Source: a virus
Taxonomy: Duplodnaviria; Heunggongvirae; Uroviricota; Caudoviricetes
Direction: 5' to 3' (one strand)
DNA: 6,281 nucleotides
Virus record (IMG/VR): IMGVR_UViG_2675903559_000013
Coordinates: 1-6,281 of that record
Part shown: positions 1 to 6,281 of the stretch, one piece after another
How positions within the stretch are numbered: position 1 is the first letter of the stretch
How the letters are laid out: each line of letters begins with the position of its first letter
The notes under the pieces: model-generated
Databases searched by the model: none
What the model was told of the DNA's origin: nothing
Seen by the model: only the letters and a program-made list of their open reading frames with translations
Translations under genes and position numbers: made by a program

Positions 1-43
1 ACGGAACGGTATCTGATGGCCACGGGATTGGTGCACCGACTGG
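1..43. repeat. Near-identical 43-bp junction repeat, copy A (encodes [14 protein letters not shown])
   Basis: acggaacggtatctgatggccacgggattggtgcaccgactgg differs from 3941-3983 at one position. Weaker similarity continues to about 61 / 4001 (PPAEFYPVG vs LPPESYPVG). Confidence 0.75.
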
Positions 44-1825
44 ATAAAACTCTGCAGGAGGATGAGCCGAGGTGTAAAGCTGCGCCCACGGCGACCAGTT
101 TGCGTCGGTCGTATCCCGTCGTGAACGAATAAATGCCGGAGCATGAGCACCGCTTGTACCACTCCAGCCGATGAGTAACTCACCTTCGCCAACGGCTGTC
201 ATCCCTTTCAGGTGAATGATATTTCCATACGCTGTTGGATATCCGTTGTTATACACCTCGTATAACTCAAGACCTGCTGCCCCCTGCGTATTGTCTGTCA
301 GCGCGGCTACCCGACCTTTTGAAGCCAGATTAACTGATGATACTGCTGTTCCACCTGACGGTAGCGCCCCGATCTCTGATGCCGTTGGCTTATTTCTGGA
401 GTTATAGTCCCTTCGCCAGCCAGGTGAATAATCTGTTCCGTGATTAATATAGGTAAACTGGGCGTTGGTTGTTCCGCCACCGCTGGATGTGGTCGGAGTG
501 GTAATGCGGATCGTCATCGCTGACTTTATCCCCATTACTTCAATGACAGCTCCGGCGAGATGAATATTACCGCAGCCAGTATCAGTAATGATTTTATTAT
601 TGCCATAAGACCAGGAACCCTTGCACATCCAGTATGGATGGTTAAATGCTCCCTGAGAATCCAGCCACTCGATAAACTGTGCAGTCGTCCAGTTTCCTGT
701 TGTTGTGCTTACTGACCCACCGAAGGCACGGCAGGCACCAATATTTTTCGTAAAGGTGTCTTTGCCAGGGATATCCGCACCGTTCTGATCTTTCTGCAGA
801 CGTTTCTCAGCATTGTCATTGGCTGCTTTTACTGCCTTTGGCGTTGCCGCCAGCGTTTCAGACGTGCTGTTGGTCGCGCTGCTTAGCTGGATTATCCCTT
901 TCTGTGCTGTCGTTGCATCCTGTGCGGTGTATTTCCCGTTAGCCAGGTCATACGCGGCCTTAACGGCTTTTGGTGTTGCCGCCAGTGACTCGGAAGTGCT
1001 GTTAGTCGCACTACTGAGCTGTACTATCCCCTTTTTCGTCGTGCTCGCATCCTCAAGCGCCACGGCGGATGCAATATCCTCTGCCCGTTTTGCCGCTGTC
1101 TCAGCGCGCGTTGCTGCAGATTCCGCCGTACTTTTGCTCTGAGCTGCTGCCGTCGCACTACCAGCAGCCTCTGTCGCCTTCGTGGATGCCGTCGTGGCGC
1201 TGCCCTTCGCTGCTGACGCCTGTCTGGTCGCCTCATCTTTTGAAGCAGACGCCGATGATGCCGATGACGCCGCCGAACTGGCGGACGATGCGGCAGCCGT
1301 TTTTGAGGATTCTGCACGGGTTTCCGACGCTTTCGCGTTCGTTTCGGATGTCTTCGCTGCGGAAGCTGACCTCGCTGCTGCCGTGGCCTGCTCAGTGGCT
1401 TCGCCAGCCTTCGTTGTGGCTGTTGAAGCAGACGATGCGGCACTTTCTGCCGATTTTCCGGCGGCGGTGGCACTGGCTGAGGCCTGCCCGGCACTTGTTG
1501 ACGCGGCACTGGCAGACGACGCAGCCGCTGTTTTTGAGCCTGCCGCAGCTGAGGCACTCTGTCCCGCTGCCGTTTCAGAAGACCTGGCGTTCGTCTCGGA
1601 CGTTTTGGCCGCCTTCGCAGAATTTGCAGCCGCCGTCGCCGAGGAAGCTGCGCTACTGGCGCTTGATGATGCGTTCGTTTCTGATGATTTCGCTGCCTCT
1701 TTTGAGGCCGCCGCATCCCGGGCTGAGGTGGCTGCTTCTGACGCCTTCGTGGTCGCGGCGGATGCAGAAGTGGCTGCTGATTGTTGTGACGCTGCCGCAT
1801 TCGTTTCTATGCAGGGGATATTGAT
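1..1825 (-). CDS. Second side tail fibre paralog (stf-like), open at its 3' end beyond the window start; no canonical start codon for its first ~254 codons, so it may be a gene fragment or recombination cassette
   Basis: Not in the ORF track because it has no stop within the window. I translated the minus frame (codons at 3k+2) codon by codon from 1825 to 2 with no stop, about 608 codons. It encodes the Ala/Ser/Thr-rich shaft repeat ([15 protein letters not shown]...), two tail-fibre repeat motifs ([26 protein letters not shown] and [26 protein letters not shown]), a distinct central domain ([49 protein letters not shown]...) and the conserved junction [20 protein letters not shown]. The first in-frame ATG/GTG/TTG from the 5' end is GTG at 1061-1063; a gene caller would probably start there. 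Confidence 0.6.
768..1807. repeat. Direct repeat copy A of the stf shaft/tail-fibre-repeat region (about 1040 bp)
   Basis: Aligns with 5167-6074 at offset 4399 below the indel and 4267 above it. Hand comparison of two 60-nt windows gave 3/60 and 5/60 mismatches. This copy carries an extra 132 bp (44 codons). Confidence 0.85.
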
Positions 1826-2401
1826 TTATGGTTGACTTGGCCACTCGATATCTGGAGATAGTGATGTATCAACACGGTTCAGCAACACCCGATACTTTTT
1901 CCAGGCTTCAAGCAACGAGGTTTCTTCCTCCGTTGCGATTTCCAGATCTGCAGCATCCTGAAGCGGCGCAATATGCTCACTGGCTACCTGCATCAGGCTG
2001 TTTTTTGTTTCTTCCGCCTCCCGGATCCGGAATAGTTTTTCTGCTTCTGCATCTTTCACCCAAGCTGTACCGTTCCACTTCTGATATTCCCCTTCCGGCG
2101 ACAACCAAGTAACATTTTCCGGTAACGGACCGAGTTCAGAAATAAATAACGCGTCCCCTGATGCCACGTCATAAACCGTTTTACCCCGATGATCTTCAAC
2201 GAGATGCCACGATGCATCATCACCGTTGAAAACAGCCACGAAGCCTGCCGGAATATCTGGCGGTGCAATATCGGTACTGTTTGCAGGTAGACCTGTATGA
2301 GGTGGAATGTATGCATCACCTTCACCAATAAATTCATTAGTTCCGGCCAGCAGATTATAAATTTTTATGGTCCGTGGTTGTTCAGTCATTCTAAAATCCA
2401 T
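1826..2401 (-). CDS. tfa: Tail fibre assembly protein (lambda Tfa-like chaperone)
   Basis: The translation from the ATG at 2399-2401 reads [58 protein letters not shown]..., near-identical over most of its length to lambda Tfa as recalled. The track begins at GTG 2407, but that GTG is part of the Shine-Dalgarno AGAGGTG (2405-2411), so the ATG three nt after it (2399-2401) is the likely start. Stop is TAA at 1826-1828. Confidence 0.9.
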
Positions 2402-2404
2402 GTT

Positions 2405-2411
2405 CACCTCT
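2405..2411 (-). promoter_or_regulatory. Shine-Dalgarno (AGAGGTG) for tfa
   Basis: The minus strand reads TAG-AGAGGTG-AAC-ATG: the macro-gene stop TAG is immediately followed by AGAGGTG, then a 3-nt spacer, then the tfa ATG. Confidence 0.6.
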
Positions 2412-3300
2412 ACTTAATATCAGAGACAGAATATTGTTTATTGAGCGTATGGGTGGGAGCACCAATAACGATGCTACTTCCGTGGCTATGTGCGCCAGAG
2501 GTGAGATTGCCTACGGGATTTTCTGGATTAAACCGGTGTGTATGCGAATCAGGGCGAGAGCGATTATTAGTCAGCACGTCATCAGCCTGATGCACATGGC
2601 TAATACAGAACTGCCCGGAACGTGAGCAATACGTCCGATAATCGCCGCATCCAATATATTTAGTATCCGCATAACGGCAAACAGAATTACCCGGACAGTA
2701 TGCATATGTGCCAAATACTGCCGACTGGCGGGAGTGTGCGTATTCCCAGTTAATTGATTCTGTTTTCTTATTAAAGTTATCCCATGCCTGCTTCATTTGC
2801 CGGGCAACGCTTTCAAACGGAACCTGACCACATCCGGCCCCCATTGCAGGGAATACCACCGTCTTTATTTTCCTGTCTGTCGTTGCGTTTTTATTGTGCT
2901 GAAAGATGGCAAGCAGAGCGGCCCAGGTTGCATTATATACAGCGTCTGTTCCGTCAATTGTCAGCGGAACACGCATTGTTGGCGCATGTACCAGCCAGGG
3001 GTGATGATTATGCCCCGTTTCAATTACAAATGCAGAACCTACAGGCTGTTCGCCTAGATATTCACGAAGAATATGATTCTGAACGCGGGACTGTAACTGA
3101 GTACCGAAGAATGCGGTAATGGCGGCATCAACGCCGCCATCCATCAGGCCGAAACTATTTGCCGCACTTACCATGCAGTCAAATTCTCTGATTGTTTCAA
3201 ATGGCTTTCCGACAATATTCACATTATCTGCGGTTGCAAATACCCGCTTAAATGCTTCAGCCATTTCTGTTACTGGTGCAGAAAGAATGAGCGTAATCAT
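2410..3300 (-). CDS. Macro-domain protein (ADP-ribose-binding/hydrolase fold) with a Cys/His-rich C-terminal extension; function unknown
   Basis: 296-aa ORF. Macro-domain signature motifs: [21 protein letters not shown] (aa 41-61; compare YmdB/MacroD D-x-I-V-N-A-A-N...G-G-G-V-D-G-A-I), [21 protein letters not shown] (aa 88-108) and [14 protein letters not shown] (aa 148-161; compare S/VAFPAISTGVYGYP). The C-terminal ~110 aa has 5 Cys (C202, C208, C218, C225, C232) plus His-rich stretches. Start ATG at 3298-3300 overlaps the stf TGA stop (ATGA), with GAGG at 3306-3309 five nt upstream. Stop is TAG at 2410-2412. Confidence 0.82.
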
Positions 3301-6281
3301 GCAAGCCTCACAATATAGTTAAATGCGATGTTTTTGACGGTGTTTTCCGCGTTACCAGCAGCGTTAACGGTGATGGTATGTCCATGTGAACCAATCGCAA
3401 CGGAGTGCGTGTGTGCACCAATACCGACAGTATGTGCGTGTGCACCTGCAGATGCTGCTGTGCCGGACAGTGAGTGGCTATGATTACCATCTGTACTGGT
3501 ATTAGCTAACCACCCCGTAGACATACCTACTGAGCCTTGTACACCCCAGGTATTTTGACCTGAGCTTGTATAACCATATTGATAAGTATCTTTAAAAACA
3601 CTGGGGTTAAATCGACGGCCATCTCTATGGCTGTGATTACCAGCTGCATTCGTGCTGCCACTTAAACTATGGGTATGCGCACCAGTGTTATTCGTGGATT
3701 TAGTGCCGTAATCAAACGACGATGTGGTTTTCGTCCCCAAATCCGTACTGGATGCGCTGGCGCTGTGGGTATGCGATTTAATGCCATCCTGTTCCTGAGA
3801 CAATACGGCACGACCACTGGCGGGCTTGCCCTTAATCGTCCAGCCACGCAAATCAGGGATCACGCCTGACGGATAAGCGGCAGCAAGTTTCGGGTAGGCA
3901 GATTTGTCAAAAGTCTGCCCCTGCATCAGGGCATAACCAGACGGAACGGTATCTGATGGCCACGGGATTGGTGCGCCGACTGGGTAGCTTTCTGGTGGAA
4001 GATTTTTCGAGGTATAAACTTCTGCCCAGTCTTCCTCAAAACCATAGCCATCTCTTGAAGAACGGTAGAACAGACCACCATTTCTGTAATGCGCCTTCAT
4101 CTGCAGGGTCCGGCAACTTCCGACTCCGGTATAGAAGTTAACCAGAATATAGCTGTCGCCAGAGCGGGTGACATTGTAAGCGCCTGATTCGGCATTCCAG
4201 GGAACGCCACCATCCGCATCGGCATATGTATCCGTTGCCCTTCTGGCAAAAGCAGCCACATGCGCGGCGGTTAAAGTAATATCTTTGGAACCATCAAACT
4301 CAACACCAGAAACCCGTCTTGGCGTTTGCAGCTTTGTTGCTGTTAATGCATTACCGTTCAGACTTGCGGACAGTTTGGTTCCAATAACCAGTTCGCCGGT
4401 TGCGTTATCAATAGCAAACGGTCTTAATGTATTCCAGCCACCATAAACATCACCTTGATTGGTAAGCAGCAGGTAAGTTTTAGCGCCATCATTACGCCAT
4501 AATGCCCCATACTCCCCACCTATCATTCGAATCTGATTACCACCACGCGCTACAATTTCGTCTGTGGCAAAAAGTTTTTTGCACGACAAGTTATCGTTAA
4601 CGATTAACGAATGAGACTCATAAAAACCACGCCCACTCTTAAAATCAAGGATAACGTCCGCCGCGATACATTCAGTCGCCGGATTTGTTGCCCCAAACTT
4701 ATAGGTCGTATCATTAACAACGAGATCAGCACCAGGTGCGGATATTGACAGGCCATCTTCGATAAACGCAAAAACAGGGAAAGCAGCGCCATCAACATAG
4801 AACACAGAGCGCAAATCATCGCCCTTATTACTCATCATTATTGAGTGGATGGCTCGTTCATTGTTTTGATATTGCCAGAACATTCCATAAGCATAACGCC
4901 CCCTGTCAGTCCAGCCACCAGGCATAACAAATCCGTTAAACTCGCAGTTATTCATCGGATCGCCTGCGGTTCGCGTTGCCGTGGTGATAATGACCCTTGA
5001 TGCCAGTTCGCTTACTGAGCCAGCAGAACGCATAACAACAACAGGGTAATATTTTCCAGATATTGCACCTGCAGGAGCGTTAACCCGCACATAACGCATA
5101 CCACGCTTATCAGCAAAGTCTGTTTTACTGACCGCGTTAATGTTGTTCAGGAAGCGTCCCTTATCGGGTATATCAGCGCCGTTCTGGTCTTTCTGCAGAC
5201 GTTTCTCTGCATTGTCATAGGCTGATTTTACTGCCTTTGGCGTTGCCGCCAGCGTTTCAGACGTACTGTTGGTCGCACTGCTGAGCTGTACTATCCCCTT
5301 TTTCGTCGTACTTGCATCCTCAAGCGCCACGGCGGATGCAATATCCTCTGCCCGTTTTGCCGCTGTCTCGGCGCGCGTTGCCGCGGATTCCGCCGTACTT
5401 TTGCTCTGTGCTGCCGCCGTCGCACTGCCAGCTGCCTCTGTCGCCTTCGTGGATGCTGTCGTGGCGCTGCCCTTCGCTGCGGACGCTTGTCTGGTCGCCT
5501 CATCTTTTGAAGCAGACGCCGATGATGCCGATGACGCCGCCGAACTGGCGGACGATGCGGCAGCCGTTTTTGAGGATTCTGCGCTGGTTTCCGACGCTTT
5601 CGCGTTCGTCTCGGATGTCTTCGCTGCGGAAGCAGACCTCGCTGCTGCGCTGGCCTGTTCAGTGGCTTCGCCAGCCTTCGTTGTGGCTGTTGAAGCAGAC
5701 GATGCGGCACTTTCTGCCGATTTTCCGGCGGCGGTGGCACTGGCTGAGGCCTGCCCGGCACTTGTTGACGCGGCACTGGCAGACGACGCAGCCGCTGTTT
5801 TTGAGCCTGCCGCAGCCGAGGCGCTCTGTTCCGCTGCCGTTTCAGAAGACCTGGCGTTTGTCTCAGACGTCTTTGCCGCCTTCGCGGAATTGCCTGCCGC
5901 CGTTGCCGAGGAAGCGGCACTACTGGCGCTTGATGATGCGTTCGTTTCTGATGATTTTGCCGCCTCTTTTGAAGCCGACGCATCCCGGGCTGAGGTGGCA
6001 GCTTCTGACGCTTTCGTGGTCGCGGTGGATGCAGAAGTGGCTGCTGATTGTTGTGACGCTGCCGCATTCGTTTCTAACGTTTTCGCCGCACCGGCACTGG
6101 TAGCCGCCGCGCTTTTTGAGGACTCTGCAGCGGCAGCACTTTTTGAGGCTTCAGTGGCCTTTGTTGATGCCGTTCCTGCGCTGGAAGACGCTGACTGAGC
6201 CGACGAAGCGGCCTGTCCGGCTGACGTGCTGGCTGCACGTGCTGAATCTGCAGCATCAGTCGCATGGGTTGCCGCCTCACG
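3297..6281 (-). CDS. stf: Side tail fibre protein (lambda Stf-like), 5'-partial; the N-terminus lies beyond the window end
   Basis: The track ORF 3297..5330 ends ...[47 protein letters not shown], matching the lambda Stf C-terminus as recalled. It also carries [26 protein letters not shown] (tail-fibre repeat motif) and [35 protein letters not shown] translated the same frame upstream of the track's GTG (5328-5330) codon by codon to 6281 and found no stop and no ATG/GTG/TTG; it encodes Ala/Ser/Thr-rich ...AAKTSETNA... repeats typical of the Stf shaft. The track start at 5330 is therefore only the first in-frame start codon, not the real start. Stop is TGA at 3297-3299. Confidence 0.92.
3306..3311 (-). 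promoter_or_regulatory. Shine-Dalgarno (GTGAGG) for the macro-domain gene, embedded in the last codons of stf
   Basis: The minus strand reads AACTATATTGTGAGGCTTGC-ATG-A: GAGG lies 5 nt upstream of the ATG, and the ATG overlaps the stf TGA stop, consistent with translational coupling. Confidence 0.55.
3941..3983. repeat. Near-identical 43-bp junction repeat, copy B, inside stf at the central-domain/C-terminal-domain boundary
   Basis: acggaacggtatctgatggccacgggattggtgcgccgactgg; direct orientation relative to 1-43. Confidence 0.75.
5167..6074. repeat. Direct repeat copy B of the stf shaft/tail-fibre-repeat region (about 908 bp)
   Basis: Same alignment as above. Homology ends at ...cgtttcta (1807 / 6074), after which copy B continues as stf coding sequence whereas copy A abuts the tfa stop 18 nt later. 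Confidence 0.85.

Follow-up and report, generated by a model that had tools for sequence, protein, structure and literature searches.

Macrodomain proteins of phages are described as counter-defence factors in the AdfM group, which includes T4 Tk.4, PhiKZ gp104 and PhiPA3 gp108 (PMC13309987; bioRxiv 10.1101/2025.11.20.689424). AdfM is DarG2-like, has a catalytic Asn and Lys, strips ADP-ribose from DNA and is encoded outside the fibre operon. The subject of this report is another phage-encoded macrodomain protein, a 296 amino acid (aa) open reading frame (ORF) situated between the side tail fibre gene stf and the tail fibre assembly chaperone gene tfa. It is found in a 6,281-nucleotide (nt) stretch of Caudoviricetes DNA (IMG/VR record IMGVR_UViG_2675903559_000013, positions 1 to 6,281), here called the window. 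Unlike AdfM, the window protein is of the Macro2 type, is situated in a fibre operon that appears to be expressed late, and carries a fibre-like tail.

The yeast protein Ymx7 (YMR087W; PDB 1njr, 1txz and 1ty8) is the only studied member of the Macro-2 type clade; it converts ADP-ribose-1''-phosphate to ADP-ribose and is reported to be without de-mono-ADP-ribosylating (de-MARylating) activity (PMC6397177). The N-terminal extension is common to Ymx7 and the window protein, and the two share the motifs VSxxNSxGxxxGGxD, xxHxPT and PGxxTGxxxVP, although overall aa identity is only ~20%. Ymx7 is a cellular protein tied to tRNA-splicing by-products and displays neither the four-cysteine (Cys4) block and HxH tail of the window protein nor any phage or fibre context. 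To our knowledge there is no known function of the Macro2 clade in phages.

The insertion site also has well described counterparts. In lambda, and in the stfR-tfaR and stfQ-tfaQ modules of E. coli K-12, the fibre 3′ end and tfa are ~95% identical to the window in nt sequence and show a start/stop overlap with nothing in between, whereas the window has 895 nt at exactly that junction. In fibre tips of the T4 gp37 type, HxH repeats of three chains coordinate metal ions. The tail of the window protein has GxHxH repeats like those of the gp37 needle (PF03335), but the repeats number only one to three and are attached to a predicted enzyme and not to a fibre shaft. Tad1, Tad2 and the newer Tad proteins, the sponges and enzymes of Thoeris anti-defence, are phage accessory proteins directed against small molecules derived from nicotinamide adenine dinucleotide (NAD), a role similar to the one proposed below for the macro family; their folds are unrelated, however, and the link to Thoeris is a rationale only.

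The macrodomain ORF occupies positions 2410..3300 of the window on the minus strand, the strand of all genes and gene segments of the window given below, and is intact, with 296 codons and a TAG stop. It matches PHROG 2613 with an E-value = 5e-141. Pfam Macro (PF01661) aligns with aa positions 44–169 over its full length (profile positions 1–118 of 118; E-value = 8.6e-19, 68.1 bits with a cut-off of 22). The three macro signature motifs that the earlier note had read from the sequence are all located, at aa positions 41–61, 88–108 and 148–161 (window positions 3118–3180, 2977–3039 and 2818–2859), and the profile search and the structure prediction followed by Foldseek both find a macrodomain. 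NCBIfam gave sub-threshold matches only, to ADP-ribose-binding or deacetylase models. The ORF shows no match to the tail fibre chaperone family PF02413 (Caudo_TAP), which the downstream gene does match.

More than 1700 homologues are present in E. coli, Salmonella, Citrobacter, Enterobacter and Erwinia. The pooled ratio of nonsynonymous to synonymous substitutions (dN/dS) is 0.12–0.16 for the macro core, 0.26–0.35 for the Cys block and 0.43–0.55 for the tail; purifying selection acts on the entire ORF and is most relaxed in the tail. With this number of homologues and the low core dN/dS, the ORF is not a chance reading frame, and a pseudogene or hitchhiker is ruled out by the dN/dS values together with intact ORFs across genera. 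Base composition of the gene is like that of the neighbouring genes. The window ORF is seven codons longer than the 289 aa alleles, e.g. that of phage Chuche (positions 6840–6920 there, compared with window positions 2410..2440), where a TAA stop is found in place of the TAT present here. The last residues, YSVSDIK, are probably without function, since only the TAA to TAT change extends the ORF and homology otherwise continues in the DNA beyond it. In Salmonella, C-terminal fragments of the macro family account for many "hypothetical proteins" of ~100 aa, and the sequences indicate that the gene is often truncated or frameshifted in decaying prophages.

The gene is fitted closely to both of its neighbours. 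At the left boundary of the insertion, as defined by the junction sequences, the stf stop (TGA) overlaps the macro start (ATG) in an ATGA at 3297..3300. On the other side, an 8-nt spacer with a Shine-Dalgarno-like sequence, AGGTGAAC (2402..2409), extends from the macro TAG to the tfa ATG, which follows directly at 2401; the spacer adjoins the right boundary of the insertion. The tight coupling described in the earlier note is thus present at both ends. Where the macro gene is absent the junction reads GCATAATGG, with the stf TAA overlapping the tfa ATG, and where it is present the junctions read GCATGATT...TAGAGGTGAACATGG; the downstream gene therefore stays closely coupled to an upstream stop in both forms. 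A search for a promoter and terminator of the gene's own showed two promoter-like and two terminator-like sites, compared with 3.6 and 1.8 expected from shuffled sequences, and none of them flank the gene. The start/stop overlap, the spacer and the lack of promoter or terminator signals above chance agree with the proposal, also made in that note, of expression with the late tail genes, and the overlap and the spacer suggest that the macro protein is co-translated with the fibre and the chaperone, which would make it a late protein.

Among 5426 complete E. coli genomes, 128 (~2.4%) carry the macro gene, 22 of the places being on plasmids, and it is within or beside a tail fibre gene in every E. 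coli case listed. Of 83 loci examined, 80 have enough upstream sequence, and in all 80 the fibre stop overlaps the macro start and the last 230–260 aa of the fibre resemble those of the window fibre (54–99% identity). The N-terminal parts of the fibres vary from ~400 to ~1180 aa across three phage types. A Tfa homologue is found downstream in 79 loci.

A junction query was made by fusing the final 400 nt of stf to the initial 400 nt of tfa, leaving out the macro gene; it aligns without a break over 797 nt with ~95–96% identity. A place covering at least 80% of this query is found in ~1119 of the 5426 genomes and includes stfR-tfaR and stfQ-tfaQ. In a sample of 80 viral contigs with the closest Tfa (93–100% identity), the stf stop overlaps the tfa start in 76, where Tfa identity is 93–96%, and the remaining four display an 895-nt gap with the macro gene. 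The same stf and tfa are thus directly adjacent far more often than they are separated by the insert (~1119 genomes compared with 128, and 76 contigs compared with four), which bears out the earlier suggestion of an inserted accessory gene. No other insert at the stf-tfa junction was seen among the 80 contigs; as the macro insert is the only one there, the junction is rejected as a general cargo hotspot for this Tfa type.

Carriers of the macro gene include the N15-like plasmid prophage pAH01-1, where the gene is 99.8% identical to that of the window, lambdoid prophages with the gene order J-lom-stf-macro-tfa, the P2-like phages SEN4/5 and Chuche, and Gifsy-1 of S. Typhimurium LT2, where the ORF is STM2588.1n and is labelled "contains pfam01661". 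The macro gene is an optional cargo, a precise 895-nt insertion at the stf-tfa junction of a mobile fibre-tip cassette, and the cassette is exchanged among lambdoid, N15-like and P2-like temperate phages of enterobacteria. The earlier note knew of no described macrodomain gene at this position. A literature search likewise found no paper that describes or tests the stf-macro-tfa arrangement; the gene itself, however, is already in databases, in the Gifsy-1 GenBank record, as "macro domain-containing protein" in the annotation of the Prokaryotic Genome Annotation Pipeline (PGAP), and in PHROG 2613 with "unknown function".

The macro core (aa 1–195; 2716..3300) is of the Macro2/Ymx7 type and includes an N-terminal strand-helix extension. 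The AlphaFold2 model used here is based on an alignment of 118 diverse relatives; an earlier model from 32 close homologues, with a predicted local distance difference test score (pLDDT) of 47, was set aside. Mean pLDDT of the model is 83, with values above 94 for aa 1–190, 64–83 for aa 200–240 and below 50 for the last 55 residues. The model shows the three-layer alpha/beta macro fold, and 206 PDB macrodomain chains match it with an E-value of 0.001 or better. The top Foldseek match in PDB is 1njr, with an E-value = 1.4e-11 over 201 columns and the second at 1.4e-07; a search with the family profile also places 1njr first (E-value = 8.6e-18, the second at 1.1e-11). Pfam Macro_2 (PF14519) scores 23.5 bits and narrowly misses its cut-off of 27, and it is annotated in many members of the family. 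In the fold search DarG structures come 18th (E-value = 2.3e-06), and by profile they give 5.5e-05. The PADLOC DarG profile gives an E-value = 0.0046 and 14.5 bits on the macro protein, with no stretch over threshold. By sequence profile and by modelled fold, the window macrodomain is assigned to the Macro2/Ymx7 clade and is not DarG-like.

The predicted pocket is retained as well. In the profile alignment, window residues N48, D58 and H105 align with N80, D90 and H145 of Ymx7, VSPGN80SYGYLGGGFD90 being paired with VSAAN48...D58 and IIH145VPT with LVH105APT. Kumaran et al., in 2005, reportedly proposed these three Ymx7 residues as catalytic. At least 90% of the 118 diverse relatives share N48 and D58, and H105 does not vary within the phage family. 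These relatives have 21 invariant or nearly invariant residues, and the window protein keeps all of them. The core matches 2355 clusters with an E-value below 1e-3, and among the best 150 of these most are stand-alone proteins of ~200 aa. Cellular orthologues with ~50% identity are found in Cyanobacteria, Chloroflexota and Planctomycetota and in multidomain eukaryotic proteins. The identity with cellular orthologues, and the retention of all conserved residues, point to a retained pocket for an intracellular ADP-ribose derivative.

The C-terminal 100 aa are the most unusual feature of the protein and were not mentioned in the earlier note. They begin with a family-specific Cys4 block at aa 200–238 (2587..2703), with the pattern AYCPx4C...YIGxG...TxCx6CIxxxHQ. 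The Cys positions are invariant or nearly so, and the pattern is shared by 107 of 109 near-full-length members. In the model the block forms two beta hairpins with pLDDT of 64–83, and it is a probable metal-binding knuckle. The remainder (aa 239–296; 2413..2586) is a His-rich tail with fibre-type GxHxH repeats, variable in repeat number and length. Two to three HxH motifs are found in 90 of the 109 tails, the family ranging from one to three GxHxH repeats, and the modal HxH spacing of nine also separates the final three GxHxH repeats at the end of the neighbouring fibre. An hhalign comparison of the tail with the HxH region of the fibre gives a probability of 94% and an E-value = 1.2e-7 for a match of short length and simple composition; a BLASTP comparison between the macro protein and Stf shows weak HxH matches only (E-value = 0.14). 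By analogy with fibre tips, the HxH tail most likely forms a short trimeric stalk, putatively metal-bound.

Pfam searches of the C-terminus gave no match, including to PF03335 (Phage_fiber). The protein also has neither an N-terminal attachment domain nor a long trimeric shaft: aa 1–195 are globular and no fibre Pfam domain is present. When the C-terminal module alone served as the profile query, the only matches were fragments belonging to the same family, and thus the module is not a general fibre-docking domain. In Izhakiella australiensis the copy (2068-2970 of its contig) has a normal macro core, but the Cys block is swapped for another Cys/Gly-rich stretch, as if by frameshift, and GAHxH repeats are situated at the end; this copy is preceded by a fibre of just 291 aa.

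Relatives outside the fibre operon appear in a different setting. The closest stand-alone relative has 207 aa with 64% identity and is located between ParB_N/methyltransferase genes and a phage terminase, away from the tail genes. Homologues in jumbo phages (Pseudomonas phage Noxifer gp265 and Klebsiella phage FBKp24 gp159) are found among small non-structural genes, and the FBKp24 copy is five genes from an RNA 2′-phosphotransferase, whose pathway yields ADP-ribose-1''-phosphate. The jumbo-phage homologues named "tail protein" were considered as virion proteins, but their non-structural context speaks against this. Given that context, the name looks propagated from the gene position in enterobacterial phages and not based on evidence. 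No conserved partner is present near cellular orthologues among 74 neighbourhoods, except for a PARG-like gene in five loci. These five are cyanobacterial, and the divergently oriented, bacterial-type PARG-like gene (GGG...QEE signature) is upstream of the orthologue. PhiPA3 carries gp271, a member of this clade, far from its AdfM gp108. The presence of both in one phage implies different roles.

The reading we favour is that the macro protein acts as an enzyme in the infected cytoplasm, where it would bind and hydrolyse a soluble ADP-ribose derivative substituted at the 1'' position. Candidate substrates are ADP-ribose-1''-phosphate and a related NAD-derived by-product or immune signal. Its role would be that of an accessory counter-defence or ADP-ribose clean-up enzyme, and not that of a structural part needed by the fibre. 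Tfa may aid folding of the tail, and the tail may hold the enzyme near the fibre-chaperone complex. We give this cytoplasmic reading about an even chance. It fits the conserved pocket, the non-structural contexts of the relatives, and the argument that phage macro and related domains target soluble ADP-ribose derivatives (PMC9503650). In a 2026 preprint, the folded side tail fibre with its chaperone complex is the trigger of Thoeris II (TIR/ADP-ribose signalling) in at least one other phage group. A hydrolase made together with such a trigger could, speculatively, be a sensible antidote to a fibre-triggered defence.

Several observations weigh against a cytoplasmic enzyme of this kind. Late expression is odd for a counter-defence protein, except where the protein that sets off the defence is also made late. 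The third motif, PAMGAGCG in the window protein, departs from the cellular consensus PGLGTGxG, which may mean that substrate specificity has shifted. The fibre-type tail does not fit a purely cytoplasmic role. Moreover, the C-terminal module is absent from the stand-alone relatives and confined to copies in fibre operons, and this confinement speaks for a physical connection to the fibre or Tfa, for which a purely cytoplasmic enzyme would have no use. The likeness of tail and fibre is itself based on a short, low-complexity HxH repeat that gives it moderate support, and the monomer model of the tail is of low confidence (pLDDT below 50).

In one alternative, the protein would be borne on the virion as a fibre accessory. 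The HxH tail, folded by Tfa, would dock a trimer of macrodomains on the distal fibre and alter adsorption, with the macrodomain binding or modifying a surface ligand, e.g. a phosphorylated or ribose-containing glycan; the closest analogy would be the gp38-type adhesins added to the fibre tips of T2-like phages. The GxHxH repeats and Cys4 block limited to fibre-operon copies are in keeping with this, as are the exact position of the gene between fibre and chaperone with translational coupling and its constant association with one type of fibre end and one Tfa family. However, the same fibre end and Tfa work without the macro gene in about nine times as many genomes. The fibres upstream carry highly diverse receptor-specificity inserts, and the gene therefore goes with no single receptor. 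Intracellular orthologues with ~50% identity share the conserved pocket, which is unexpected for a surface lectin, and an N-terminal fibre-attachment domain is absent from the protein. Finally, we know of no ADP-ribose-like surface ligand in Enterobacteriaceae. A virion-borne accessory is thus considered unlikely, though still to be taken seriously.

The earlier note also suggested an anti-defence factor that reverses host ADP-ribosylation. Here the macrodomain identity stands, but DarT-type reversal is not specifically supported, the domain being Macro2/Ymx7-type with a negligible match to the PADLOC DarG profile. Breakdown of NAD-derived signals, which the note raised as well, is plausible. 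In a broader form of this suggestion, the protein would remove ADP-ribose placed on phage DNA, RNA or late proteins by a host toxin or defence system with DarT-type, CmdT-type or protein ADP-ribosyltransferases, respectively. Phage macrodomains with such a role do exist, as AdfM demonstrates (bioRxiv 10.1101/2025.11.20.689424; PMC13309987), the MacroD/Ymx7 motif keeps its Asn and Asp, and Foldseek lists DarG and MacroD structures with E-values of ~1e-6. Yet the domain belongs to the Macro2/Ymx7 clade and not to DarG/ALC1-like macrodomains, the one Macro2 protein studied is reported to lack de-MARylating activity (PMC6397177), and PhiPA3 has its gp271 homologue in addition to AdfM gp108. On this balance reversal of macromolecular ADP-ribosylation is improbable. 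Still less probable is a moron that benefits the lysogen, for example in ADP-ribose or O-acetyl-ADP-ribose metabolism or in Salmonella virulence, and that is simply situated in the variable region closing the tail operon. In lambdoid prophages cargo genes are known at the stf/tfa end, with lom, gogB and a pagK-like gene in the loci examined, and the macro gene is widespread in prophages of pathogens. But a promoter and terminator of its own do not rise above chance, the gene is inside the late operon and coupled on both sides, unlike typical morons, and SEN4/5 and Chuche, which are isolated phages, carry it too.

The protein could also be an enzyme built like a miniature fibre, in which the GxHxH tail would be trimerised on metal with the help of Tfa, placing three Macro2 hydrolases on or beside the fibre-chaperone complex. 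This proposal is novel but considered unlikely.

The flanking genes show the context in which the insertion is found. The window edge truncates the stf gene (3300..6281) at its N-terminus; an open frame extends from 6281 to 3300, with 994 aa visible. It contains the Pfam domains Phage_fiber_2, Gp34_trimer, gp37_C, Collar and Phage_fiber, and is 99% identical to the 1132 aa fibre of pAH01-1. The conserved fibre end (3300..3488) consists of the GxHxH repeat series, the last three spaced by nine residues. Upstream of it, between conserved HxH blocks, the fibre tip contains a hypervariable insert (3489..3626). When fibres located before a macro gene are compared over their final 140 aa, a region that includes this segment, 19 variants less than 85% identical are found, and the segment is probably a receptor-specificity determinant exchanged independently of the macro gene. 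The tfa gene (1826..2401) matches Pfam Caudo_TAP with an E-value = 1e-43 and PHROG 105.

The tfa TAA is followed at once, and in frame with tfa, by a second stf-like frame (2..1825), which is 5′-truncated and continues past the window edge. This second frame repeats the Ala/Ser-rich part of the upstream stf, the repeats at 740–1800 being similar to those at 5139–6090, and the E. coli stf genes that match it best (97%) themselves precede a macro gene. In complete E. coli genomes, no collinear arrangement of tfa followed by stf was found. The frame appears to be a displaced remnant of cassette exchange, or an assembly join. Over the GC-rich Ala/Ser-repeat part of stf, at 813..1835 and 5269..6198, long ORFs of 217–309 aa are present in several frames and on both strands; these are by-products of the repetitive codon composition and not genes.

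The macro family differs from the known phage macrodomains in its clade, in its Cys4 block with HxH tail, and in its precise, recurrent insertion into a fibre operon. Counter-defence by phage macrodomains has been shown only recently, and the known ones are DarG-like, whereas Macro2 is another clade. The gene is common, being present in the E. coli genomes counted above, in numerous Salmonella prophages and, in the model strain LT2, in Gifsy-1. Since natural allele pairs with and without the macro gene exist on a fibre 3′ end and chaperone that are ~95% identical, and since Gifsy-1 carries the gene, its function is directly testable. A fibre-type HxH tail on an enzyme could reveal a new coupling of an accessory activity to tail-fibre assembly. 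If the miniature-fibre proposal is true, this would be the first side tail fibre decorated with macrodomains, or else a "trigger-linked antidote" that destroys ADP-ribose-based immune signals. In the antidote version, signals such as His-ADPR or gcADPR would be destroyed at the place and time at which the folded fibre tip sets off TIR-type defences.

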